DNA of 64,000 nt. Origin: Geobacter sp. GTDB taxonomy: Bacteria; Desulfobacterota; Desulfuromonadia; Geobacterales; Pseudopelobacteraceae. This document shows positions 3,855 through 59,822 of the stretch, in pieces. The notes below the pieces were generated by a model. The model was not told the DNA's origin and searched no databases. It worked only from the letters and a program-made list of their open reading frames with translations. Numbering within the stretch: the stretch's first letter is position 1; every line of letters begins with the position of its first letter. The translations under genes were made by a program, and so were the position numbers. Location: positions 16,390 to 80,389 of the forward strand of contig WKKS01000011.1 of assembly GCA_009684515.1 (NCBI GenBank), given 5' to 3'.

Positions 3855-4958
3855 TCAGCTTTGAACTTTATCCAAAAAACCGCAAATCAATGGTGCAAAT
3901 GTTTCGTGTTCCAGTAGAAAAGCGTCATGGCCGTAGGCTGACGTTATCAGGTGGTATTCGGATTGTTTTCCAAGATCTTTAAGGCAGGTGGCCATCTCTT
4001 CAGTTTGGTATGCCGGATAAAGCCAGTCGGATGTGAAAGCGTAAAACTGAATCGGAGCTTTTACCTGCTCGAAGGCTTCGCTCATCGATTCATAGCCCCA
4101 GGCGATATCGTAGAGATCCAGTGATTTTGCCAAATATAGAAAAGAGTTGGCATCAAAACGGTCTACAAAGTTGTAGCCATTATAATTCAGGTAGCGTTCG
4201 ACCTCAAACTGTCCGAAGAAGTCAAACTTGCCGTCTCGTGCAGAAAATCTGCGTCCGAATTTGGCATTCATTGATTCGTCTGACAGGAAGGTGATATGGC
4301 CGATGCCTCGTGCCAATGCGAGTCCGTCTTTTGGGTTGTGTTTGTATTCGCCTTTGCGCCAGGTCGGGTCGTTGAAAATAGCCCACCGGGCTACAGCGTT
4401 TAACGATATTGCTTGTGGTGACGGCCGCGGTGTGGAAGCCAGCACGATGGCAGACGCGATATTGTCCGGATACTGGGTCGCCCATTCCAGGGCTTGCATG
4501 CCGCCCATGCTGCCGCCCATGACGGTTAGTAACTTGTTGATTCCCATGGAATCAATTAATAGCTTTTGGGCGCGCACCATGTCACGAACAGTTATGACTG
4601 GAAATGAAAGGTTGTATCTTTTGCCGGTTTTGGGGTTGATTGATGTTGGGCCTGTTGAGCCGTAGCAGGAGCCAATTACGTTGGAGCAGATTACGAAGTA
4701 GCGATTGGTGTCTAATAGTCTTCCGGGGCCGACGATGGCATCCCACCAACCCGGTTTGCTGTCTGAATCGTCATGCTTTCCAGCCAGGTGGGCATCGCCT
4801 GTCCACGCATGTTCAACCAGGATTGCGTTGGAGCGGTGTTCGTTAAGAGTACCATATGTTTCATAGGCAAGCGTAATGGGTGCCAGTATGCGCCCGCTGT
4901 CCAGTTTTATGCCGGATTCAAAAGTCTTAGATTGTTCAGTGACAATGCCGACAGACAT
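3855..4958 (-). CDS. metX: Homoserine O-acetyltransferase
   Basis: Strong MetX blocks are present: [64 protein letters not shown] chose the start MSVGIV at 4958, 20 codons inside the track ORF, because the riboswitch terminator occupies the upstream codons. Confidence 0.93.
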
Positions 4959-4959
4959 C

Positions 4960-4993
4960 AAAAAGCCCCTTCGTATTCTAAAGACGAAGGGGC
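4960..4993 (-). terminator. Expression-platform terminator of the SAM-I riboswitch
   Basis: Minus strand reads GGCCCCUUCGUCUUUAGAAUACGAAGGGGCUUUUU, directly abutting the metX ATG. The only SD-like sequence (GAAGGGG) lies in the 3' arm of the stem. Confidence 0.75.
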
Positions 4994-5017
4994 CGGTATT
5001 TGTAAATACACAGCACA

Positions 5018-5118
5018 CCCCTCATCGTTGCCTTTCGGCAGGAATTAGCACCTGACGCCTCATTGGCCGGTTGCTGTGGTTTCGCAGGGCCTTTCCCTCC
5101 ACCACTCTAGATAAGCAG
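5018..5118 (-). promoter_or_regulatory. SAM-I (S-box) riboswitch aptamer
   Basis: Minus strand reads CTTATCTAGAGTGGTGGAGGGAAAGGCCCTGCGAAACCACAGCAACCGG...GGTGCTAATTCCTGCCGAAAGGCAACGATGAGG. This matches the conserved S-box core (CTTATC.AGAG.GG.GGAGGGA..GGCCC...GAA.CC..GCAACC....GGTGCTAA.TCC) with P1 closure CTTATC/GATGAG. Confidence 0.85.
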
Positions 5119-14308: not shown

Positions 14309-16189
14309 TCACTTCTTTTTTGTTTTTTTACCACCGGATGTTTTTTTAGTGGTTTTTGAACTTTTTGACTTTTTAGAACCTTTTTTGGACTTTTTGATCT
14401 TGCCTTTTTTGCCTTTGCTGATCTTGTGCGGTTCCGGGTTGAATTCATCACGAATATTATTAAGCAGCACGGAGGTCTCTTCCATTGTGGGGTCCGCTTT
14501 TTTTGCAGCCTCAAGCGTTTCCTTGGCCTCGCTCAATTTTCCGGCCTTCATGTAGAGACGACCCAATGCGTTCAGAGAACGGGCATGGTCCGGCTTGATT
14601 TCTATCGCTTTCTTGTAGCTTGCTTCGGCGCTTTCATAATCTTTTTTAAAATCATGGATCAAGCCCAGCTTGTAGTGATTATTGGGATCATCAGGATTGA
14701 TTTCTGCGGCTTCTTTCAGAAGAGCGGTAATCTCGTCGTACTGCTTGTTCTTTACATAAATTGAGACAAGGGCTGTCCGCACTTCGGAATCGTCCTTGTG
14801 CAGCGCTAAAACCCTCTTGTAATGGCTGATAGCTTTTTCATTATCACCTTTGGCCTTGTACAAGGCGGCGATCTCACGGTTTGCATCGGCGTCGTTCGGG
14901 CTGTAGGCCAGTACTGAATTGTACGATGCAATTGCTAAAGTCGTTTCCTTGCTTTTCGCAAATATGCGGGCTAATTTGAGGTGGATATCCGGGCTCTCAG
15001 GTTTTAGTTTGAGAAATTCCGAATAATGTACTGCTGCTTCCGCGAGAACTCCGCGGGAATAGCGTATGTCTCCCAGTCTCAAGTGTGCTTCGGCGTTGCC
15101 TGGGTTGACTTTAATGGCGCGTTTATATGCCACCACCGCCTCGTCAAACTGTGACTTCTTTTCGTAGAGAAGGCCAAGGTTAAGATAAACATCGCTCTTG
15201 GTACTGTTAAGGTGGGCTGCTTCACGGTATGCGTCAAGCGCTTCGGCATCTTTTCCTGCAGCACGGTAGATGTCGCCGAGCTTTTCGTAGTTGGCGACAT
15301 CTCCAGGATTCTCTTTGGCTGCCGATTTAAGGTATTCCAGTTCCTTGTTATTTTCGGTTGCGGCTACTTGTTGCGTCGGTTTGACAGGGGCTTCCGGTAT
15401 AGCTTTGCCCTTGCCCCCCAATAGTTTGTGATACTCGCTTTGCTTGGCATCACCCTTTTTTTCATAAATGTCGGCAAGTAGCAAATGAGCTTCTCGATTT
15501 TGAGGATTAGCGGCTTCAACTTTCTTCAGCTGTTCAATTGCCTGGTCAAGGTTATTGCGCTGGATGTAGATGGTTGCGCTGCCGACATATGCTTTTTCGT
15601 ATCCGGGATTGGCCGTTAACGCCCGGCGGTATTCCTCAAGTGCCTTGTCCGGTTGCCCCATTTCACTGTAGATTTCAGCCAGGCTGGCAAATATGGATGC
15701 ATCGCGAGTCAGTTCTTTGCCCGCTTCGTTGAAGTGATAGATGGCCAACGGGTAAACTTTGCGTTCGGCAAAAATGCGGGCAATCGCCTTGTGGTAAAGT
15801 GGGTTCTGAACTGCAGACAAGCCGCGTGACAACTCAACTGAAGCTTCGTCATTCATTCCTTTCTGCGCATACAGGAGACCCAGGTTGCCGCTGGCGCGAG
15901 CGAAGGAACGCTCCTGTCTCAGGGCCTTGCGATACTCTGCCACAGCGCCATCAAGGTTGCCGACTCGCTGCAATTGCAGGGCCGTTACAAAGTGAGCAGC
16001 GGCCCCATCAGGGCACATTGCAATAGTATCTGCCTCAGCCTGACGCATCTGCGCGTCATCCTGAATTTCTTCCAGAGAAGCCGCCTTTTCCAATGCCTCC
16101 TTGCATGGGTCCGTACCGAATCCCCAACTGAATCCGGTCAAGAGTAGCGTGGCGCACGTCAGTGTAAGGTATGTTCGTAATATATGCAT
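14309..16189 (-). CDS. Secreted TPR-repeat protein with a poly-lysine C-terminal tail
   Basis: Many TPR units (A..Y..AL...P....A...LG.). Signal-like N-terminus from MHILRTYLTLTCATLLLTG. An alternative GTG start lies at 16237. Tail: KISKGKKGKIKKSKKGSKKSKSSKTTKKTSGGKKTKKK. Confidence 0.75.
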   Translation of the reverse strand: MHILRTYLTLTCATLLLTGFSWGFGTDPCKEALEKAASLEEIQDDAQMRQAEADTIAMCPDGAAAHFVTALQLQRVGNLDGAVAEYRKALRQERSFARASGNLGLLYAQKGMNDEASVELSRGLSAVQNPLYHKAIARIFAERKVYPLAIYHFNEAGKELTRDASIFASLAEIYSEMGQPDKALEEYRRALTANPGYEKAYVGSATIYIQRNNLDQAIEQLKKVEAANPQNREAHLLLADIYEKKGDAKQSEYHKLLGGKGKAIPEAPVKPTQQVAATENNKELEYLKSAAKENPGDVANYEKLGDIYRAAGKDAEALDAYREAAHLNSTKSDVYLNLGLLYEKKSQFDEAVVAYKRAIKVNPGNAEAHLRLGDIRYSRGVLAEAAVHYSEFLKLKPESPDIHLKLARIFAKSKETTLAIASYNSVLAYSPNDADANREIAALYKAKGDNEKAISHYKRVLALHKDDSEVRTALVSIYVKNKQYDEITALLKEAAEINPDDPNNHYKLGLIHDFKKDYESAEASYKKAIEIKPDHARSLNALGRLYMKAGKLSEAKETLEAAKKADPTMEETSVLLNNIRDEFNPEPHKISKGKKGKIKKSKKGSKKSKSSKTTKKTSGGKKTKKK

Positions 16190-16359
16190 ATTTAGAGTAT
16201 CCCTGGCTTTCAAGAGTAGTGGTGCGCGATTATACACACGAGCAGGCCGGATTTCAATGTTATAGGCTAAATGCTTGATTATTTGATGCGGAATGGGATA
16301 ATGTCATCGGGATGTGAGTGTGTCAAATGGCAACACCTCGAAAATCAGCAGGGGTTTCT

Positions 16360-17434: not shown

Positions 17435-17527
17435 GCCCGAACCTCGCTGGTACAGCAAAGATGAAAATTGATTTTATCACTCTGAAATAGTATCATCAGA
17501 GTTTAATTACATCAATTAAGGATGAAT

Positions 17528-18034
17528 ATGATCCGAACAATTCTCACTTATCCCAATCCCGAACTCAAGAAGAAGTCGGTGCCGGTTACCATAATCAATG
17601 ATGCGTTGCGTGAACTGGTCCGTGACATGGCGGAAACGATGTACGCAGCTCCCGGAATCGGTCTTGCTGCACCGCAGGTCGGCGTGCATCAGCGTGTTAT
17701 CGTCATTGATCTGGCTTCCAAGGATGAGCCATCCGAGCTGATAGCAGCCATCAACCCGGTCATTGTCCATGCTGAAGGTGAGGCATACGAAGAAGAAGGT
17801 TGTCTTTCCGTGCCCAAATATGCCGCCAATGTCCGTCGCCACGCCCGTGTGGTCGTCAAAGCTCTTGACATTGAAGGCGTTGAACGTACCTGGCAGGCCG
17901 ATGATCTGCTGGCAATCGCGTTTCAGCATGAAATTGACCACCTGGACGGAATTCTATTTATAGATCACCTTTCAGCTCTCAAGCGCGAGCTGTTTCAGCG
18001 CAAAGCACGCAGGGCTGCCGAGGAGAGTCAATGA
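17528..18034 (+). CDS. def: Peptide deformylase (copy 1, linked to fmt)
   Basis: GIGLAAPQVG, EGCLSVP and HEIDHLDG motifs. The second ATG is preferred on SD spacing; the track ORF starts at 17522. Confidence 0.95.
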   Translation: MIRTILTYPNPELKKKSVPVTIINDALRELVRDMAETMYAAPGIGLAAPQVGVHQRVIVIDLASKDEPSELIAAINPVIVHAEGEAYEEEGCLSVPKYAANVRRHARVVVKALDIEGVERTWQADDLLAIAFQHEIDHLDGILFIDHLSALKRELFQRKARRAAEESQ

Positions 18035-18990
18035 CCGGCTGGCGAATTATTTTTATGGGAACCCCCGATTTTGCTTGCCCGACCTTGCAGAAACTGATTG
18101 ACCGTAATGAAAACCTGGTGGCTGTGGTAACTCAGCCGGATCGTCCCAAAGGACGGGGACAGAAGCTGATGCCGCCACCAGTCAAGGAACTGGCGGAAAA
18201 ATTCGATATCCCAGTATTCCAGCCGCAAAAGGTTCGCGAGGCGGCTTTTGTAGATTTGGTTCGGCAGTTGGAGCCGGATGTTATCGTGGTGGTTGCATTC
18301 GGTCAGATTCTCCCCAAGGCGCTGCTGGATATTCCGCCGCACGGGTGCATTAACGTCCACGCCTCACTTCTGCCCCGCTATCGGGGTGCCGCTCCGCTCA
18401 ACTGGTGCATCATCAATGGCGAAACCGAAACCGGAGCTACCACCATGCTGATGGATCCGGGGCTTGATACCGGCCCGATGCTGTTGCAGCGCAAAACAGC
18501 TATTGATGAAAACGAGGACATCGTTTCGCTTCATGACCGCATGGCTGCACTGGGAGCGGATCTCCTGGCGGAAACCCTGGAACTGCTGAAGACGGGGAAT
18601 ATCACACCTCAGCCACAAAGTGATGATGATACCTGTTATGCCTCAATGCTAAAGAAAGAGGATGGTTTGATCAACTGGCATCGAAATGCCCGCGCCATAC
18701 ATGACCAGATTCGCGGTATGTCAGTCTGGCCGGGAGCCTTCACTCATCTTGGAGAACAGGTGCTTAAGATATTCCGCACAAAAACCGGCGACGGGGCAGG
18801 GCCTCCCGGGACGGTTCTGAAATCATCAAGAGGGCAGCTGGAAGTGGCTTGTCTGTCAGGCAGTCTGCTTATCCAGGAACTGCAGCTGGCTGGCAAAAAA
18901 AGACTTGACGTCGGCAGTTTTCTGGCCGGTTTCCCGATTACGGAAGGCGTATTGCTGGGGCGTGAAGAGTGTGGAGAGCCTGGACAATGA
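18031..18990 (+). CDS. fmt: Methionyl-tRNA formyltransferase
   Basis: IIFMGTPDFA, VVTQPDRPKGRG and HASLLPRYRGAAP. Its ATGA overlaps the def stop. Confidence 0.96.
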   Translation: MTGWRIIFMGTPDFACPTLQKLIDRNENLVAVVTQPDRPKGRGQKLMPPPVKELAEKFDIPVFQPQKVREAAFVDLVRQLEPDVIVVVAFGQILPKALLDIPPHGCINVHASLLPRYRGAAPLNWCIINGETETGATTMLMDPGLDTGPMLLQRKTAIDENEDIVSLHDRMAALGADLLAETLELLKTGNITPQPQSDDDTCYASMLKKEDGLINWHRNARAIHDQIRGMSVWPGAFTHLGEQVLKIFRTKTGDGAGPPGTVLKSSRGQLEVACLSGSLLIQELQLAGKKRLDVGSFLAGFPITEGVLLGREECGEPGQ

Positions 18991-19778
18991 CAATGGCAGA
19001 AGAAAAAACGGCTCCGCCGCGCAAACGGCTGTTTGTTAGTTTGATGGGTTTGACCTGCCTGATTGTGGTGGCGGTGATCTTTCTGATCTGGTGGATCCCC
19101 AACCGGGGCCTGGCTAACATCCATCCCAACCTGCCCCATATAGTCGGCATCATAATGATGTCACTTTCCGGCATTGCCATCCTGGGCACCGGACTTCTGG
19201 TTCTGACAACGGCGCTTGGCAAGGATATCTTTTTTACCCGATTCATGCGACTGGTCGTGATCAAGTTTCTGCTGCCGGTAATTGAATTTGTCGGCAGGTT
19301 ACTGGGGGTTGACAAGGATAAGATTCGCCAATCCTTTATTGCAATGAACAACAGCCTGGTCGTTTCCCAACGTCAGAAAGTCAGGCCGGACCGGGTCCTC
19401 GTCCTGCTTCCGCATTGCATCCAGCTCTTTGATTGCGAAATCAAAGTCACCGGAGATATAAAAAAATGCGTACAGTGCGGCCGATGTGACATCAAAGGCC
19501 TCGTGGACATCAGCCGCAAGTACAAGATTGATATCTCGGTTGCGACGGGCGGCACGCTGGCTCGCAAGGTGATTGTTGAAAAACGCCCGAAGCTGGTTCT
19601 GGCGGTCGCCTGTGAGCGTGACCTGACTTCCGGCATCAAGGACTGCTATCCATTGCCGGTGATCGGTATCCTCAATGAACGCCCCTTTGGGCCATGTTTC
19701 AATACGATTGTTGATGTGTCAAAGATTGATGCTGCCTTAAGCCAGATTCTACTGTTGGAAGAACCCGCACAAATGTAG
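18987..19778 (+). CDS. DUF116-family membrane protein (Cys-rich)
   Basis: TM helices, then LLPHCIQ...C..CGRCDIKG, typical of DUF116. It sits in the usual def-fmt-DUF116 position, and the ATG at 18987 overlaps the fmt stop. Confidence 0.7.
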   Translation: MTMAEEKTAPPRKRLFVSLMGLTCLIVVAVIFLIWWIPNRGLANIHPNLPHIVGIIMMSLSGIAILGTGLLVLTTALGKDIFFTRFMRLVVIKFLLPVIEFVGRLLGVDKDKIRQSFIAMNNSLVVSQRQKVRPDRVLVLLPHCIQLFDCEIKVTGDIKKCVQCGRCDIKGLVDISRKYKIDISVATGGTLARKVIVEKRPKLVLAVACERDLTSGIKDCYPLPVIGILNERPFGPCFNTIVDVSKIDAALSQILLLEEPAQM

Positions 19779-19787
19779 CCATCAGAC

Positions 19788-19823
19788 AAAATCGGGCGAG
19801 ATTCATTATCTCGCCCGGTTTTG
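19788..19823. terminator. Bidirectional terminator between the DUF116 gene and the selenoprotein gene
   Basis: CGGGCGAG-ATTCATTAT-CTCGCCCG, with an A-run upstream and a T-run downstream. Confidence 0.7.
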
Positions 19824-19824
19824 T

Positions 19825-20082
19825 TTACTCGCCGGTTTTAATTTCATTCAGCATTTCCAATCCAAAATTCTTGGCGCGCCCTCCCGGGGCGATCATCCCG
19901 TAGGCCACCGCTTCACGCAGTTCGGCATCGTTGGCTCCTTCCGACTTCGCGACCGCGAAGTGTTTCCTGAATCAGGTCGGGCATCCGACCGCAATGGCGC
20001 AGCCAACCCGGATAAGTTCGCGAACCCGCCCGTCCAGAACCTCTTCATACTCATAATCGAGAAACTTCTTGCGAATGTTCAT
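19825..20082 (-). CDS. AhpD/carboxymuconolactone-decarboxylase-like selenoprotein (85 codons, Sec at codon 37)
   Basis: This gene is not in the ORF track. An AGGAGG SD lies 8 nt upstream of the ATG at 20082. Translation: MNIRKKFLDYEYEEVLDGRVRELIRVGCAIAVGCPT-U-FRKHFAVAKSEGANDAELREAVAYGMIAPGGRAKNFGLEMLNEIKTGE. The UGA (19972-19974) falls in a C-x-x-U-x-x-x-H arrangement equivalent to the AhpD CxxCxxxH signature. A hairpin lies 10 nt downstream, and selB is in the same window. Confidence 0.75.
19944..19961 (-). promoter_or_regulatory. Candidate bacterial SECIS stem-loop
   Basis: ACUUCGC-GGUC-GCGAAGU: a 7-bp stem with a GGUC apical loop, starting 10 nt 3' of the in-frame UGA. Confidence 0.6.
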
Positions 20083-20096
20083 GCTGAAATCCTCCT

Positions 20097-23000
20097 TTAG
20101 TCAGTTGCAACACAGAAAACACGCTCATAAACATCCCTGATCTTTCCGGTTGTCTCTTCATAGTCATCTATCAGTACAGTTCCGGGGTTCTTCAGTTTCG
20201 GATCATATCCCAATCGTCGGGCCAGCTTGTTCATATAATTCTGAGGTCCGGCCAGATCATTAACCGAATAGTCGTGGATAATACGCAGCCGGTTTTCCAT
20301 TTTGCGAAGAAACTTGTAGCCGCTCAGCAGTGTTTCCGCATCTCCGTCGGGGAGCAATTTCAGGGAGCGGATCTCCTTGAGTGCCACGATCGTGTTGGTG
20401 CTGCGCAATTCCGGGTAGCTGCAGCCATAACGTAACTGAAGATATTGAATGGTGAATTCCACATCCACCATCCCGCCACGTCCCGTTTTGATGTTGTAGC
20501 TCCCCTCTTTTTCTTTGGCCAGCTCGTTCTCCATTCGCATTCTCAGGCGATGGATCTCGGCGCGCCCATCATCGTCGATTGTGGCCCCGTAGATGGTGTG
20601 GCGGATGACGTCGTTCAGTTGTCCGGCCAGCGTTTGGTCGCCCAGTACGACCCGGGCTTTGGTGAGAGCCTGACGTTCCCAGATCTGGGCCTCCTTGCGA
20701 TGATATTCCAGGAATGACTCCAGCGAAGTTACGAGCGGGCCGGCATTGCCTGAGGGGCGCAGGCGCGTATCAATTTTATAAACATACCCTTCGCGGGTTT
20801 GCATTGTCAGAACCGAGATGATCTTTTGGGCCAGCTTGGCAAAGTACTCGTGATTGGAAATCTGTTTTTCACCATCGGTGTACCCTTTATGATCGTAGAC
20901 AAAGATGATGTCCAGGTCGGAGTGGTAGTTCAGGTCGCCGCCACCAAGTTTTCCCATGCCGATGATCGCCAGACTTGCTTTGACGGCATGCCCTTCAAAC
21001 TGGTAGACCGGGTTTCCAAAGCGTTTCAGTTCCGAAACTGCCAGGCGGTAGGCTGCGGCAAGGCAGGTTTCGCCGAGCAGGCTGAGTTGCGATGTTACCT
21101 CGCCCTGCAGGAGCTTGCCATGGATGTCGTTCAGGCCGATGCGCAGAAACTCCTCATTTCGAAAGCGTCGCAGCACATCCAGGCGGTCCTCGAAATAATC
21201 ACTCTGCTCCAGCAGGATGTCCAGTTCTGCTGTCATAACTTCGATCGTTTTGGGGGTCGAGGTGTAAGTGCTGGAGGCCATGCTGTCCAGCAGTTCCGGA
21301 TGACTGATCAGGATTTTGGAGAGAAATTCGGACATGCCGAATAGCGAAACCAGCAGTTTGCTCGTTTCACGGTTTTCAGCCAGCAGGGCATAATATGAAG
21401 GACGGGTAGCGATCTCCGACAGGAAACGCTCCAGATTTACCAGAGCCATGTCCGGATCGGGAGAATCAAATACTTTCTGGAGCAGCAACGGGGTGATTTT
21501 TTCCAGATTGCGGCGGCTGCGCTCGGTCAGGTTTCCCTTGGCCGGCCCTCGGCGCAGCAATGCCAGGTTCTCGTAAGCCCGGTCAACATTTTCGAAACGC
21601 CTTTCAGCCAGCATATCCTTGACCAAATCGGAGTCGGCCCGCTGGTCAAGAAACAGTAGTGTTTCAGGATTCAAGTCCTGCTGCAGCTTTTCATCTCTTG
21701 AATGGAACAGGGTGCCGTAGATGATGGAAACATTGCTGCGGTGATTTTCCAGAACTTGATTGAAACGTTCAAGCCCGCCCGCTCTCAGATATCCGCAGCG
21801 CCGGGCCAGCGCCAGCATTTCATCCGGCTTGCCCGGAAGATTGTGGGTCTGGCGCTCCTGGACAACCTGGATGCGGTGCTCGGTGGAACGCAAAAACCGG
21901 TAGGCATCCCGCAGCTTGTTGTAATCATTTTCATTGATCAGGCGTGCCTCTAACAGTGTTTTCAGCGCCTTGAGCGAGTTTCGCTCCCGCAAATTCGGAT
22001 TCTTCCCGGCATAGACCAGCTGTAAGGCCTGGATGAAAAATTCGATCTCGCGGATGCCGCCGCGCCCAAGCTTAAGATTGATTTCTCCCTCCATCGAACG
22101 GGCCAGGGAAACGTCGATCTTCTGCTTCATGTTCTTCATATCCTCGATCAGGTTGTAATCGAGATATTTGCGGTAAACGAAAGGCTGCAGCATTTTTAAC
22201 AGCTGCTCGCCCAGTTCCAGCGAGCCGGCCACCGGCCTGGCCTTGAGCATGGCGGTGCGTTCCCAGGATTGTCCCCAGGATTCGTAATACACTTCGGCCG
22301 AACGGAGCGAAACCGCCATATCCCCAGATTTGCCTTCCGGTCGCAGTCCCACATCGACCCTGAAAACAAAGCCGTCTTCAGTTACCTGTGAAAGAGCCTT
22401 GCTGATCAATTCTCCCAATTTGTTGAAGAATGTGTGCAGCGAAACGACCCCCTTGCGTGAGCCGGAACCGTTTTCTACACCGGACGTTTCACCCTTGTCC
22501 GACTCATAAAAATAAATTATGTCGATATCGGACGAAAAATTCAGCTCCCGCCCCCCCAGTTTACCCATGCCGATAACGGTCATTTCAGCTTCCCGCAATC
22601 CGTCCGGAGTGGACAATAAGGGGCAGCCATATTCCTTGACCAGGCAGCGGCGACTAACCAGGTAGGCCATCTGCAGTGAGGCCGCAGCCAGACTTGAAAG
22701 CTCGTCGGTGACCTCTTCCATAACCGCCAGGCCGTTCAGGTCACGCGCTGCAATTCTAAGGATTTCAGCTCGCTTGAATAGTCGCAGCTGTTTTTGCAAC
22801 GACGCATAATCGGTATCGTTATCCACCAAGCTTTCCACGGCGCTCAGCATGCTGGCAAAATTACGTGCTGTGTCGATGCCGTTGTCAAGGAAGAGCATGC
22901 GAAGGGTTTCGGGGGTTTTGTAAATCAGATTCACCAGAAACGGTGAAGAGCCACACAACATCAAAAACTGGGCCAGTCGTTTTTTTCGTCCGGCCAGTAC

Positions 23001-23270
23001 GACCATGTCGTCCGGCGAGATCACACCAGTCAGGCGTTCGAAAGCGTTCAGGGCCAGGTCGGGGGAGGGTGTCAAAAGCGAGAGAATTACAATCCGATAC
23101 AGTTCTTCAGCCGAAAAAAGCGGCTGGAACATCGTGATGTTCTCAGCGGAGCGGGCACCGTATTGATAACCGTGCGACTCCAGAAGCAGGGCCAGTTCCC
23201 GCACCCGGTCAGCTTTATCGTCGATGGCGATGATGCGATGGAAATCCTCTGAAAAGCGTTCCTGAGGCAT
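20097..23270 (-). CDS. glnE: Bifunctional glutamine synthetase adenylyltransferase/adenylyl-removing enzyme
   Basis: About 1060 aa with two nucleotidyltransferase modules ([22 protein letters not shown] and [22 protein letters not shown]). I chose the ATG at 23270; the track start at 23285 is a TTG. Confidence 0.93.
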   Translation of the reverse strand: [1057 protein letters not shown]

Positions 23271-23271
23271 T

Positions 23272-24312
23272 TTATTTACCCGCAACCCTGCGCAAACCGG
23301 CGCGATAATCGTCCTTGACGATGCCGTTCTCGGTGATGATGGCCGTAATGTAGCGGGCCGGTGTCACATCAAAAGCCGGGTTGCGAACCTTGACCCCCTC
23401 CGGTGCGATTGCGACCCCCTTGATATGAGTCACCTCGTTGTCCGGCCGTTCCTCGATCGGGATTTTGCTGCCGTCGGACAGAGTCAGGTCCAGGGTCGAA
23501 ACCGGCGCAGCCACATAAAAGGGGATATTGTTTTCCCTGGCCAATACCGCTACCGAATAGGTGCCGATCTTGTTGGCGGTGTCGCCATTGGCGGCGATCC
23601 GGTCGGCACCAACCACGCAGCAGGTGATCTCCCCCTTGCTCATGAAAAAACCGGCCATATTGTCGGAGATCAGTGTCGTTGGTATGCCGTCCTTCATCAA
23701 TTCCCAGGCGGTCAGGCGGGCGCCTTGCAGCCAGGGGCGGGTTTCATCCGCAAAAACCTTAATGTTTTTTCCGGCCTCCTGGGCGGCACGAATCACACCC
23801 AGAGCCGTTCCGTAGCCGGCTGTGGCCAGCCCGCCTGCGTTGCAGTGAGTCAATACGGTCGCTCCTTCCGGGATCAGGGTGGCACCCCACTTGCCGATAT
23901 TCTTGCAGATGGTCAGGTCTTCCTGCTCAATCTTGATCGCCTCTTTCTTTAATATATCGCGAATTTTATCGAGGCTTTTATCCCGATTTTCCTCTGCGAC
24001 CCGCTTCATGCGCTCGATGCCCCAGAAGAGATTGACCGCCGTCGGGCGGGTGCGGGCCAGTACGTCGCAGACGTTCTCCAATTGGCGATAGAACGAATCG
24101 TAAGTGTCGGCAATGATCTCGCGGGCTCCCAGCGCCACTCCCATGGCGGCAGCCACGCCGATGGCCGGTGCTCCCCGGATGATCATTCCCCGGATGGCGT
24201 CGGCCACGGATTTGAAGTCGGTGTAGCTGTTGTAAATTTCTTCGTTTGGCAGACGGGTCTGGTCGATCATGATCACAGCGTCGTCGCGCCATTCGATGGT
24301 ACGAAAGGACAT
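23272..24312 (-). CDS. mtnA: S-methyl-5-thioribose-1-phosphate isomerase
   Basis: [34 protein letters not shown] and [27 protein letters not shown] precedes the ATG at 24312. Confidence 0.93.
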
Positions 24313-24475
24313 TATCGGACTCCTCGGTTTGAAATATGCCCCAGCCTTCACAATAAATGGGTGGGGAGCGGATGCCTTTAGATTTTTATTAGTACCACGG
24401 AGCGACTGATTCAGGCAATATTTTACCCGTCGTTTTACCTTGCCGCTAAAGAGCCGTAACTGCTATAAACCCGGC

Positions 24476-38732: not shown

Positions 38733-38740
38733 GACAGAAA

Positions 38741-38822
38741 TGCTAGGGGAGTTTCGACTGAGAGCGGATGATTCCGCGACCCTTCGTACCTGATCCGGGT
38801 AATGCCGGCGTAGGGAAGCGCG
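38741..38822 (+). promoter_or_regulatory. TPP (THI-box) riboswitch aptamer
   Basis: CTAGGGGAG...CTGAGAGCGG...CGCGACCCTTCGTACCTGATCCGGGTAATGCCGGCGTAGGGAAG matches the THI-box core (CTGAGA ... ACCCTT.GAACCTGATC.GG.TAATGCC.GCG.AGGGA). Confidence 0.88.
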
Positions 38823-38836
38823 CCGATAGAGTTTCA

Positions 38837-39085: not shown

Positions 39086-39865
39086 ATGACAAACAAAACT
39101 GATAAACTGGTAATTGGCGGGCGTGAATTCAGTTCGCGACTGATGGTGGGAACCGGCAAGTATGCCAGTTTCGAACAGACCGCACAGGCACTGGAAATTT
39201 CAGGCGCCGAGATCATTACTGTCGCTGTGCGCAGGGTTAATCTGGATCGCAGCAAGGAATCGCTGTTGGATTACATTGACCTGAAAAAGTACACCTTGCT
39301 ACCCAATACTGCCGGTTGTTATACCGCCGACGATGCTGTTCGTACCTGTCTGCTGGCACGTGAAGCAGGTATGTCCGATTTTGTAAAGCTGGAGGTGCTG
39401 GGAGATGAAAAGACCCTTTTCCCAGACAACGAAGAACTGCTCAAGGCTGCCAAAGTGTTGGTGGGGGAGGGGTTTACGGTTCTGCCCTATTGTAGTGACG
39501 ATGTGATTCTCTGCAAAAAACTGGAAGATTTGGGGTGCGCGGCAGTCATGCCTTTGGGGGCTCCGATCGGCAGCGGTTTGGGAATCCGTAACCCTTATAA
39601 CATCAAGATCATTCTTGAGAACGTTAAAGTACCGGTAATCGTGGATGCAGGGGTTGGCTCCGCCTCGGATGCTGCCATCGCCATGGAACTGGGGTGCGAC
39701 GGGGTCTTGATGAATACCGCTATTGCTTGTGCCCAGGATCCGATTGCAATGGCCGAAGCGATGAAGCTGGCAGTAATTGCCGGCCGCCTTTCCTATAAGG
39801 CCGGACGGATTCCCCGCAAGTTGTACGCCAACGCCTCCAGTCCGCTGGAAGGCATGTTTCTATGA
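39086..39865 (+). CDS. thiG: Thiazole synthase
   Basis: [27 protein letters not shown] and [11 protein letters not shown] blocks. Confidence 0.96.
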
Positions 39866-52755: not shown

Positions 52756-54765
52756 ATGCCAACAACTTACCGTTCCGTCTGTCCCTTTGATTGCCCCGAT
52801 GCCTGTGGCCTGCTGGTGGAGGTGGCCGACGGCCGCGTCCTGAAAGTCAGCGGTGATCCGGACCATCCGGTGACCCGTGGCCTGCTTTGTCCCAAGATGC
52901 AGAATTATGAGCGGACCGTGCATTCTCCGCGCCGTCTGACTACTCCGTTGCTGCGGAGCGGCACCAAGGGGGTGGGGGAGTTCACTCCGATTTCCTGGCC
53001 GGAGGCCATTGAGCGGATCTGCGCGAACTGGAAGAAGATAATTGCGGAGTATGGCGCAGAAAGCATATTACCTTATTCCTACGCTGGAACTATGGGATTG
53101 GTGCAGCGCAACAGCGGCCACCCGTTCTTTCACAAACTAGGGGCTTCGCGTCTGGAAAGGACGATCTGCTCTCCGGCCAAGGATGCCGGCTGGAAGGCTC
53201 TGATGGGTGATACCGCCGCGATGGAACCGGCCGAGATCATGCGGAGCGACCTGATTATCCTGTGGGGAATAAATGCCGCCGCCACCAGTATCCACTGCAT
53301 GCGCGATGCCCAGGACGCCAGACGGAAGGGAGCGCGTCTGTGGGCCATTGACACTTACCGCACTCCGACCTGCGCCGCTTCCGACGAAAGTTTTCTGATC
53401 CGTCCCGGCAGCGACGGTGCGCTGGCACTCGGGATGATGCACGTTATCGTTCGTGAAAACCTGATTGCCGATGAGTTTATTAGGTCCAACGTTCTTGGCT
53501 TTGATGAGTTGTGCAGGAAGGTCCTGCCGGAATGCACTCCTGACAGGATGGCCGCGATATGCGGCCTGCCTTCGGATACCATCGAACGGATGGCGCGGGA
53601 ATATGCCCGGGCCGGGGCGCCCTTTATCCGCCTCGGAAGCGGACTGACCCGTTATGCCAACGGCGCCATGGCCGTGCGCACGATCAGTTGCCTCCCCGCC
53701 CTGACCGGCGCCTGGCAGGCTTCGGGTGGCGGCATACTTCCGGGCACATCGACCGGGGGAGCTTTTCCGCTACATAAAGTTACTCGTGAGGACTTCATCG
53801 GCCAGCCGACCAGGATGGTCAGCATGAACCAGCTGGGGGCGGCGCTGACGGAATTGGATGCGCCCCGCGTTATGAGCCTGTACGTCTACCATTCCAACCC
53901 GGCCACGATAGCGCCGGACCAGAATGCCATCATCCGCGGGCTATTGCGGGATGATCTGTTTACGGTCGTGCATGAACGCTTCATGACCGACAGCGCCCGC
54001 TATGCCGATATTGTACTTCCTGCCACCTCTTCGCTGGAACACCCGGATCTGTACCGCTGCTACGGCAGCTACCAGGCCCAGCGCTGTGACGCGGTTGTGA
54101 GGCCGGTCGGAGCGTCGAAAAGCAACTGGGAGGTATTCACTCTGCTGGCAGCCGGAATGGGGTGGGATGAACCGTTCTTCCGACAGTCGGCCGATGACCT
54201 GATCGAACAGCTGATAAACTACGAGACCCCCTGGCGGAACAATGCGGTTACGGAGCGACTGCGTCAGGGAGAACCGGTTACTCTGACGCCCGCCAGCGAT
54301 CCCAAGCGCGACTGGCTGACACCCTCCGGAAAAATAGAGATTCTGAACGAACGGGAGAATGAGCCGCTGCCGCGCCTGCTTCCAACCCACGCGGAAGGCG
54401 ATGGCTTCCCGTTGCGGCTGCAATCGGCGGTGACTCCGTACGCTCTCAACTCTTCTTTTTATGAACAGGACCAGCTCTGCGATAAACAGGTCTGCATGGA
54501 ATTGCTGATGAATCATGCTGATGCCGGGCCGCGTTCCCTTTCGTCAGGTGATGCGGTAACAGTTTTCAATCAACTGGGCCAGGTCGAATTTACCCTGCTG
54601 GTGACTGAAAAAGTTCCAGCGGGTACGGTGGTGACGGAAGGTGTCTGGTGGAGTGAATTCATCGCCGGCCGGCGTGGGGTTAATGCATTGACATCACAGC
54701 GCCTGACCGACGGCGGGCGAGGCAGCACCTTGTATGACGTGGCGGTGGAAGTCAGGAAGAGCTGA
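52756..54765 (+). CDS. Cytoplasmic molybdopterin (bis-MGD) oxidoreductase family protein, substrate unknown
   Basis: N-terminal 4Fe-4S motif C-x2-C-x3-C-x27-C (CPFDCPDACGL....C), MGD-binding domains and a C-terminal beta-barrel domain. No Tat signal and no in-frame UGA. Confidence 0.85.
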   Translation: MPTTYRSVCPFDCPDACGLLVEVADGRVLKVSGDPDHPVTRGLLCPKMQNYERTVHSPRRLTTPLLRSGTKGVGEFTPISWPEAIERICANWKKIIAEYGAESILPYSYAGTMGLVQRNSGHPFFHKLGASRLERTICSPAKDAGWKALMGDTAAMEPAEIMRSDLIILWGINAAATSIHCMRDAQDARRKGARLWAIDTYRTPTCAASDESFLIRPGSDGALALGMMHVIVRENLIADEFIRSNVLGFDELCRKVLPECTPDRMAAICGLPSDTIERMAREYARAGAPFIRLGSGLTRYANGAMAVRTISCLPALTGAWQASGGGILPGTSTGGAFPLHKVTREDFIGQPTRMVSMNQLGAALTELDAPRVMSLYVYHSNPATIAPDQNAIIRGLLRDDLFTVVHERFMTDSARYADIVLPATSSLEHPDLYRCYGSYQAQRCDAVVRPVGASKSNWEVFTLLAAGMGWDEPFFRQSADDLIEQLINYETPWRNNAVTERLRQGEPVTLTPASDPKRDWLTPSGKIEILNERENEPLPRLLPTHAEGDGFPLRLQSAVTPYALNSSFYEQDQLCDKQVCMELLMNHADAGPRSLSSGDAVTVFNQLGQVEFTLLVTEKVPAGTVVTEGVWWSEFIAGRRGVNALTSQRLTDGGRGSTLYDVAVEVRKS

Positions 54766-57914: not shown

Positions 57915-59822
57915 CTACTTACGGCGCAGCACGCGCTTGTCCCCGACTCTGATGGTGACTTTTTCGCTGTCAAAATATTCCAGCAGCGGAATCAAAAATT
58001 TACGCGAAAGCCCTGTCAGCTCGCGGTATTCGGGTGGGGTAATCTCTCCCTTTTCCCTCAGCAGGGCCACCAGCTTTTCTCGAAGAACATCCAGAGTCGC
58101 GGTGGAGTAGAACAGATCGGATGAGATGCGCGCAACCTGTCCGCTGCGAACCAGCAGCGCCAGATTGTCCCGCACATTCTTCTCGTCGCAGCGAAACCGT
58201 TCCATGATCTCTTTAATGGTTGGCGGTTCGTTGCCGGCATCCGCAATGTAGCCGGATATTTTTCCCGCCAGACCATCTGCGGCGGCCGGGCGAGCTGTCT
58301 GTGCTGCCGGACGGATAATGTCGCGATCCGGCACGACCAGGCCATCTTTCTCCAAGGCGGTTAACAGCGGCGTGAAGAAGCGTCCGTCGCTCCGTTTGGG
58401 GAGGCGGGTTTTCAGCTCTTCCTTGCTGATGCCCTCCTTGAGCGGGTTGGCTGCCAAGAAGTTTGACAGTTCCTGCAGAAGGCCGCGCTTGAGGGTTTCA
58501 ACGGCGCTTTTTGCCAGGAACAGGCGTGGATCGCGCGCCATCTGCACGATCTCGCCAACTGACAGGAGCGTCGTCAGGATGGATTCAACGATTTTGCGCG
58601 GCAGGCCGCTGCGCATCAGGAGGTCTTCAAATGCGATACCCGAAAGCAGGCTTTGGGAAATGATCAGCAGAATTGTGCGCTGTTGGTCGGAGGAACCGAA
58701 CGCCTCCAGCAGTTGCAGCGCTTCTTCATTGCGCCTCCGGCGGCGGGGAGGAAAAGGGTCGAGCGTAACCCCGCCTCCAACCGTAACCTGAGGAGAAAAA
58801 GCCCGCAGGATGTAGCTGTCGCCCGAAAGCAGCAGGGCTGGTTCTTTCAGCCTCAGCTGCGCGTAGGCGCTTTCCCCCGGCTGGAGCGTGTCGCGGTCCA
58901 ACAGGATGATCTGGGCCGGCACCTCATAAGTGGCCGAATGCAAGCGCACTGTGGCGCGGTGCTTCAACTCGCGGGGTGCCGAGGAGAGGTAGTCGAGTTG
59001 CACATCCACCGTTCGGGTGGCATGAAACACGCTGCGGGGTGTCACCACATCCCCCCTGTGAATCTCATTCAGGTCGATCCCTTGCAGATTGACAGCCAGA
59101 CGCTGGCCAGCCTGTCCTTTATCGCCCTTGATGCCGTGAGCCTGGATGCCGCGCACCCGCCCTTCGTGCCCCGAGGGTAAAATCTCCAGTTCATCTCCAA
59201 CGGCAATCTCGCCGGAGAGCAGGGTTCCGGTCACAACCGTGCCGAAACCGGGCACTGTGAAAACCCGGTCGACCGGGAGGCGGAAGGAGCCTTCACGGCG
59301 TTTCTCGGCAACCTGCCGTGCCAGTCGAGCCAGTTGCTCTTTCAACTCCCCCAAACCTTCGCCGCTGCGGGAAGAAACTGCCACAATCGGCGCCTCTTCC
59401 AGAAAGCTGCCGGCTACGAAATCACGGACCTCCTCCGTCACCAGCTCCAGCCACTCCCGCTCGACCGTGTCGCGTTTGGTGAGCGCCACCAGCCCGCTCT
59501 TGACCCCCAGCAGGCGCAGGATGTCGAGATGCTCGCGGGTCTGGGGCATGATTCCCTCGTCGGCGGCGATCACCAGCATTACCAGGTCCATGCCGCCCAC
59601 TCCGGCTACCATGGTGCGGACGAACTTTTCGTGCCCCGGCACGTCTACGATCCCGAAACAGAGTTCCCCCGGCAGTTCCAGATGCGCAAAGCCGAGTTCG
59701 ATCGTTATGCCGCGCGCCTTCTCTTCCTTGAGGCGATCGGTGTCGATGCCGGTCAGAGCCTTTACCAGCGAAGTCTTGCCGTGGTCGATATGTCCGGCTG
59801 TGCCGAGGATCAGGTGCTTCAT
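57915..59822 (-). CDS. selB: Selenocysteine-specific translation elongation factor
   Basis: [50 protein letters not shown], and a long C-terminal winged-helix extension. 635 aa. Confidence 0.95.

Follow-up and report, generated by a model that had tools for sequence, protein, structure and literature searches.

The minus strand of the window (the whole stretch of DNA analyzed here, 64,000 nucleotides) carries immediately behind glnE an 85-codon gene of the GSU3128 family with an in-frame UGA at codon 37. Altogether, the conservation of this codon, the family assignment, and the nucleotide-level constraint on a short hairpin behind it make it very likely that the locus is a genuine selenocysteine (Sec)-encoding gene that uses this hairpin as its SECIS element. 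The gene is of an already known kind and is an ordinary member of the published and curated NF041047 family. A 2026 review gives NF041047 as "Distant AhpD homolog" with a CxxU motif and one Sec (PMC13188914), and for Geobacter sulfurreducens and G. uraniumreducens a selenoprotein under this name was listed by Zhang et al. in 2006 (PMC1794560). An earlier reading of this DNA, made from its letters and open reading frames (the sequence-only reading), had guessed that the family was known, and this proves to be right. Its interpretation of the locus is supported, none of the refuting outcomes that it had named having been observed. ORF calling by simple methods leaves the locus blank, and recognizing the gene is an annotation correction. 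It adds one selenoprotein to the selenoproteome of the organism and, probably, one antioxidant/redox gene beside glnE; the family with its CxxU motif has been published and curated, as has the SECIS model, and no new question is opened.

The features of the locus and of its surroundings are as follows.

19825 to 20082, minus strand: coding sequence of the very probable selenoprotein, a GSU3128-family "distant AhpD homolog" (from translation, HMMs, and 81 related loci)
19972 to 19974, minus strand: in-frame UGA, codon 37, very probably read as Sec (from 81 of 81 Sec-form loci, a Cys homologue, and structure alignments)
19944 to 19961, minus strand: probable SECIS hairpin ACUUCGC-GGUC-GCGAAGU, with its conserved core at 19945 to 19960 (from fold, conservation, and bSECIS criteria)
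20091 to 20096, minus strand: Shine-Dalgarno sequence AGGAGG, 8 nt 5' of the ATG (read from the sequence)
19783 to 19817, minus strand: intrinsic terminator, a G+C-rich 10-bp stem (19817 to 19793) and then ATTTTGTCTG (from a terminator scan)
20097 to 23285, minus strand: glnE, glutamine synthetase adenylyltransferase, the upstream neighbor (NF008292, 776 bits)
23272 to 24351, minus strand: mtnA, S-methyl-5-thioribose-1-phosphate isomerase, heading the apparent operon (TIGR00512, 457 bits)
57915 to 59822, minus strand: selB, encoding the elongation factor for Sec (TIGR00475, 371.6 bits; cutoff, 242.25)

An 85-codon frame with a single in-frame UGA

Positions 20082 to 19825, translated on the minus strand, give MNIRKKFLDYEYEEVLDGRVRELIRVGCAIAVGCPT*FRKHFAVAKSEGANDAELREAVAYGMIAPGGRAKNFGLEMLNEIKTGE*, i.e., 85 codons and a TAA stop (19825 to 19827), with the TGA at codon 37 as the sole in-frame TGA; this is the frame that the sequence-only reading had proposed. 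The start region is also as it had been described, the glnE stop codon (TAA, 20097 to 20099) abutting the AGGAGG, which is followed by 8 nt and the ATG at 20082, and 14 nt separate the end of glnE from the selenoprotein start codon. The ORF track had been claimed to be empty between 19779 and 20096, with both halves of the frame below 60 aa. There is indeed no ORF of at least 60 aa in this interval, and the N-terminal half appears in the ORF list as a 36-aa ORF. A strong terminator had been claimed just after the TAA, and the terminator scan found its 10-bp stem at 19817 to 19793, trailed by ATTTTGT and lying between the selenoprotein gene and the convergent DUF116 gene. Every statement that the earlier reading made about the sequence was thus correct.

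For HMM scoring of the 85-residue product, Sec was written as Cys. The NCBIfam profile NF041047, "GSU3128 family (seleno)protein," matched end to end (aa 1 to 81 on profile positions 1 to 82 of 84) with 137.2 bits and an E value of 1.5e-40, the curated equivalog cutoff being 110. The Pfam CMD profile PF02627 scored 41.7 bits (threshold, 23), with aa 7 to 79 on profile positions 10 to 83 of 84. This match is a single stretch running unbroken across the UGA, in line with the earlier claim that both halves of the frame belong to one CMD domain. Near-identical sequences (92 to 93%) are present in public data. A literature search found no paper that names GSU3128.

Codon 37 is a conserved UGA inside a conserved protein

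A scan that covered a single genome for each species yielded 41 related loci with 72 to 92% identity, all from Geobacterales/Desulfuromonadales and including Oryzomonas japonica. Codon 37 is TGA in 41/41 of them, and the protein is conserved on to its C terminus. The same codon is found in 6/6 more distant loci (61 to 68% identity) and in 34/34 metagenome loci, hence in all 81 related Sec-form loci. None of these homologues terminates at the UGA; all 81 remain in frame, with strong conservation beyond it.

The protein databases present a different picture of this position. Fifteen of the matches (P0001 to P0096) are full-length entries, and 14 of these show W at position 37, while one, P0010, which is 66% identical to the window protein, carries a true Cys at the Sec position (GCSECMRHH). 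The DNA behind the W entries has TGA, and the W is therefore an artifact of gene calling under a code in which UGA means Trp. The remaining 81 database matches are mostly fragments, and the eight N-terminal-only fragments that we read all end in "...GCP(T/D)" and bear spurious N-terminal extensions. Public collections hold the family mostly in two faulty forms, "…GCPT" fragments or full-length proteins with W for Sec. The claim that standard ORF calling misses the locus thus holds for the empty ORF track, and the database forms are likewise mostly faulty. A metagenome scan seeded with P0010 returned Sec forms or distant CMD proteins only, with no further close Cys form.

These data bear on the other ways in which the in-frame UGA could be read. 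A pseudogene or a sequencing error, i.e., a CMD gene broken by a nonsense change of TGC/TGT to TGA, would account for a single in-frame stop splitting a recognizable domain and for public annotation that usually consists only of fragments ending in "...GCPT." However, 81 independent loci, drawn from various genomes and from metagenomes, share this TGA. The frame continues intact beyond it and is strongly conserved there, synonymous divergence elsewhere in the gene is normal, and the codon concerned is precisely that of the catalytic Cys. This reading is vanishingly improbable and is effectively refuted by the conservation data. Standard gene callers give exactly the 36-residue product that would be expected if the UGA were a true terminator, with the 48 downstream codons untranslated or separately translated. 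But the downstream half lacks its own start codon and its own ribosome-binding site, its protein sequence is conserved and in frame with the upstream half, one HMM stretch extends over both, and P0010 is a full-length Cys homologue, which leaves true termination extremely unlikely. We give hardly any credence to a reading in which UGA stands for an ordinary amino acid, Trp or Gly as under genetic codes 4 and 25, or in which near-cognate read-through takes the place of Sec insertion. The W in 14/15 full-length entries speaks for it only until the DNA is consulted, TGA ends 13/30 long frames in the window, which excludes an alternative genetic code and indicates the standard one, a Trp at the second Cys of CxxC would abolish the redox motif, selB is present, and both NCBIfam and the literature class the family as selenoprotein. 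Sec hence remains by far the most probable reading of codon 37.

The hairpin behind the UGA and the SECIS model

The sequence-only reading had placed a 7-bp stem with a GGUC loop 10 nt after the UGA, at 19944 to 19961, and refolding agrees with it: the stem of 7 bp (19961 to 19944) starts after these 10 nt, the loop begins 17 nt after the UGA, and the 18-nt hairpin folds with -8.8 kcal/mol. The bSECIS model, as quoted in PMC13188914, asks for a loop of 3 to 9 nt and an upper stem of 4 to 16 bp, a G at loop position 1 or 2 or at both (G[G|U]NN), a UGA-to-loop distance of 16 to 37 nt, and an MFE of -7.5 kcal/mol or lower. The window hairpin lies within all of these limits (loop of 4 nt, 7 bp, GGUC, 17 nt, -8.8 kcal/mol), so that its spacing and loop type, earlier called those expected of a SelB-binding SECIS, agree with a published model. 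No other hairpin within the 16- to 37-nt range of the window sequence does so. The GGUC loop that the sequence-only reading had ascribed to E. coli fdhF is also found there, since fdhF folds with GGUC 18 nt after its UGA; the fdhF SECIS sequence used is a 100% match to fdhF in 5419 genomes.

Taken by itself, the fold is no better than chance. Its energy compared with that of shuffled sequences gave z = -0.21, and an in-window null scan found a comparable hairpin behind 30/319 read-through-compatible TGAs; the weight of the hairpin therefore comes from its cross-species conservation only. A permissive Rfam search of 19700 to 20200 returned no SECIS family and only subthreshold chance matches. 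The 16-nt core does not recur elsewhere in the window.

RNA-level selection on codons 41 to 46

The core CUUCGC-GGUC-GCGAAG (16 nt) is found unchanged even at 61 to 68% protein identity. Its six pairs are formed in 73/73 distinct sequences, so that the hairpin is kept in every orthologous locus, whereas the outer A-U pair, the seventh, is present in 31/73. The 7-bp stem of the earlier reading is thus real in the window, but the unit that is conserved comprises six of its seven pairs. Within these 73 distinct sequences, the stem has undergone one compensatory change (U-A to C-G) and one wobble change (C-G to U-G). The compensatory one is confined to a single locus (L078, positions 1109 to 1156), where UUC…AAG has become CUU…AGG (U-A to C-G and, in addition, C-G to U-G) together with the substitutions F42L and K46R. 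Covariation support is thin, amounting to one event, because the stem is almost invariant.

Synonymous codon use is more telling. Across 77 distinct genes, synonymous entropy averages 0.07 bits in codons 41 to 46, compared with 1.34 bits over the 50 other degenerate conserved codons (Mann-Whitney P = 4e-5), and outside codons 41 to 46 only one codon is as low as the highest codon inside. There is thus selection at the RNA level, located exactly on the hairpin codons 41 to 46. The 16-nt core is also unusually rigid at the nucleotide level as such, and this extends to homologues with as little as about 60% protein identity.

The loops found among relatives are GGUC, GGCC, GGGC, or AGGU, with CCUG in one subclade. 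This subclade (L048 to L052, L054, and L055; positions about 1112 to 1159 in most; …CPT-U-LKKHFALAK…) has preserved its UGA as well as the 6-bp stem, and its CCUG loop breaks the bSECIS loop-G rule. An overlapping alternative hairpin of 5 bp, CUGGC-GAAGGAA-GCCGG, is found in the same sequences, with -6.5 kcal/mol and its loop 23 nt after the UGA. Perhaps the SelB of this lineage reads the identity of the stem and not the loop, or the hairpin serves a further purpose, although we hold this to be unlikely.

The selenoprotein gene could be real and the 16-nt hairpin nevertheless be kept for codon bias, for its peptide, or for mRNA stability, with the SECIS elsewhere. The peptide HFAVAK is itself nearly invariant, the covariation consists of a single event, and the CCUG-loop subclade departs from the loop-G rule yet retains its UGA, all of which is compatible with such a view. 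Against it, the same amino acids use all of their codons outside the hairpin (Ala, 1.3 to 1.8 bits; Lys, about 0.9 bits) and codons 41 to 46 are fixed, the window sequence offers no second hairpin at 16 to 37 nt that agrees with the bSECIS model, and position and loop match the fdhF SECIS of E. coli. A SECIS elsewhere is accordingly very unlikely, and we retain the conserved hairpin as the probable SECIS of this gene.

Sec machinery and gene neighborhood

The selB gene that had been claimed for the window is there, at 57915 to 59822 on the minus strand. Searches with ARAGORN and Rfam found no tRNA-Sec, selA, or selD within the 64-kb window. Another candidate for selB, the 642-aa ORF at 14309 to 16237 on the minus strand, was rejected, being a TPR protein. 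About 3 kb from selB lies a molybdopterin oxidoreductase of 669 aa (52756 to 54765, plus strand; Fdh-alpha/DmsA-like), whose ORF is uninterrupted and without in-frame TGA, so that it is apparently not a selenoprotein.

Upstream of the selenoprotein gene, mtnA overlaps the start of glnE by 14 nt. No promoter-like or terminator-like site was detected in the interval between glnE and the selenoprotein gene, and with the 14-nt gap this makes cotranscription with mtnA-glnE plausible. On the plus strand, def (17522 to 18034), fmt (18031 to 18990), and the DUF116 gene (18969 to 19778; PF01976, 185.9 bits) overlap each other. This block converges on the selenoprotein gene, and the terminator hairpin is common to both.

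The order glnE, selenoprotein gene, and DUF116-fmt-def is shared by roughly half of the genome loci, glnE being upstream in 19/41. Two of the loci without glnE, L033 and L017, were checked, and their neighbors are unrelated (RelA/SpoT and a response regulator in one of them, ClpB-like, FeoB, and DtxR in the other). A functional link with glnE as a general feature was therefore rejected, and the adjacency is a matter of lineage-level gene order, not of conserved functional coupling. Still less likely than the readings given above for the CCUG loop is the idea that the recurrent glnE-selenoprotein operon of Geobacterales provides a redox or selenium input into the control of nitrogen assimilation.

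Two riboswitches were also observed in the window, namely, a SAM riboswitch at 5019 to 5117 on the minus strand (RF00162, 72.9 bits against a gathering threshold of 44.4), directly upstream of a 387-aa ORF (3855 to 5018, minus strand), and a TPP riboswitch at 38735 to 38833 on the plus strand (RF00059, 68.6 bits against 54.3), upstream of the ORF at 39086 to 39865 on the plus strand.

Protein fold and active site

The active-site motif of the product is C34-P-T-U37-F-R-K-H41, and E22, C34, U37, and H41 are invariant in the alignment of the family (A1). In sequence alignments, C34, U37, and H41 fall on the CxxCxxxH signature of PDB entries 3bey, 7y4r, and 1vke, with U37 in the column of the second Cys of CxxC. 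This agrees with the earlier claim that the UGA occupies the second redox position; this column holds Cys in the solved structures as well as in P0010. E22, twelve residues before C34, aligns with the conserved Glu of 7y4r and 1vke. A third invariant Cys, C28 (19999 to 20001, minus strand), is seen in "GCAIAVGCPTU," six residues before the CxxU, and aligns with a Cys of 3bey.

For the Cys homologue P0010, AF2 gave a model with a pLDDT of 84 and four helices, with the CxxC at a helix N terminus. With this model as the query, the top 39 PDB matches of Foldseek are all CMD/AhpD proteins, including 3bey, 1vke, 7y4r, 1p8c, 2cwq, and M. tuberculosis AhpD (1gu9), at a TM score of about 0.59 and a best E value that is modest (8e-3). 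The product is thus predicted, on the model of its homologue, to be a small all-helical four-helix protein of the AhpD/CMD fold.

M. tuberculosis AhpD uses Cys133 for nucleophilic attack and Cys130 for resolution. Its E118...C130-x-x-C133-x-x-x-H137, which we take to be the equivalent of E22...C34-x-x-U37-x-x-x-H41, has the identical spacing. Selenoenzymes usually place Sec at the nucleophile position. From the AhpD signature spacing and from Sec at the nucleophile position, a thiol/selenol oxidoreductase with an antioxidant role would be expected, and we hold this specific chemistry to be moderately probable by analogy.

Proposed mechanism

We propose a model in which the gene probably shares a transcript with mtnA and glnE and has its own ribosome-binding site in the AGGAGG. 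Once the ribosome has arrived at codon 37, the UGA, the hairpin lying 11 to 28 nt downstream would serve as a bacterial SECIS. SelB, encoded at 57915 to 59822, would bind it and deliver Sec-tRNA(Sec) as the SelB·GTP·Sec-tRNA(Sec) complex. Sec would then be inserted and translation would run on to the TAA at 19825. The resulting redox center, C34-x-x-U37-x-x-x-H41 together with the invariant E22, would amount to the AhpD signature with its nucleophilic second Cys swapped for Sec. The product would most likely cycle between a selenol/thiol state and an Se-S bond, as a peroxide- or disulfide-reducing antioxidant protein.

Comparison with known systems

Like the SECIS of E. coli fdhF and the bSECISearch consensus, the window hairpin is a stem-loop within the coding sequence just after the UGA, with G in the first loop positions and with stem, loop, and energy within limits. 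The GGUC apical loop lies 17 nt after the UGA in the window and 18 nt after it in fdhF. Unlike that of fdhF, the window stem is short and perfect (6 to 7 bp), lacks the bulged U and the long lower stem, and is unrelated in sequence.

At the protein level, M. tuberculosis AhpD and the small hexameric CMD proteins (3bey, 1vke/1p8c TM1620, 7y4r, and 5dik) share with the window protein the CMD fold and the Glu...CxxCxxxH arrangement. The window protein differs from them in having Sec for the second Cys, in its length (85 aa versus 96 to 177 aa), in its sequence (25 to 42% identity), and in the extra invariant Cys28. Other selenoproteins also bear a CxxU on an AhpD/CMD scaffold, e.g., AhpD-like 1 (COG2128), AhpD-like 2/CMD-like (PF02627), the AhpD-related NF041238, and the ArsM/AhpD fusion NF041537. 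These families are nevertheless separate, the window protein scoring far under their cutoffs (37 bits versus 510 for NF041537 and 29 versus 120 for TIGR04169). The closest system is the NF041047/GSU3128 family itself, with which the window protein agrees in length (~85 aa), in its CxxU with one Sec, and in its Geobacterales/Desulfuromonadales neighborhood. There is no substantial difference between them, and the window protein is a further orthologue of this family, with 92% identity to the nearest sequence in public data (L001 among the genome loci, P0001 among the protein entries).
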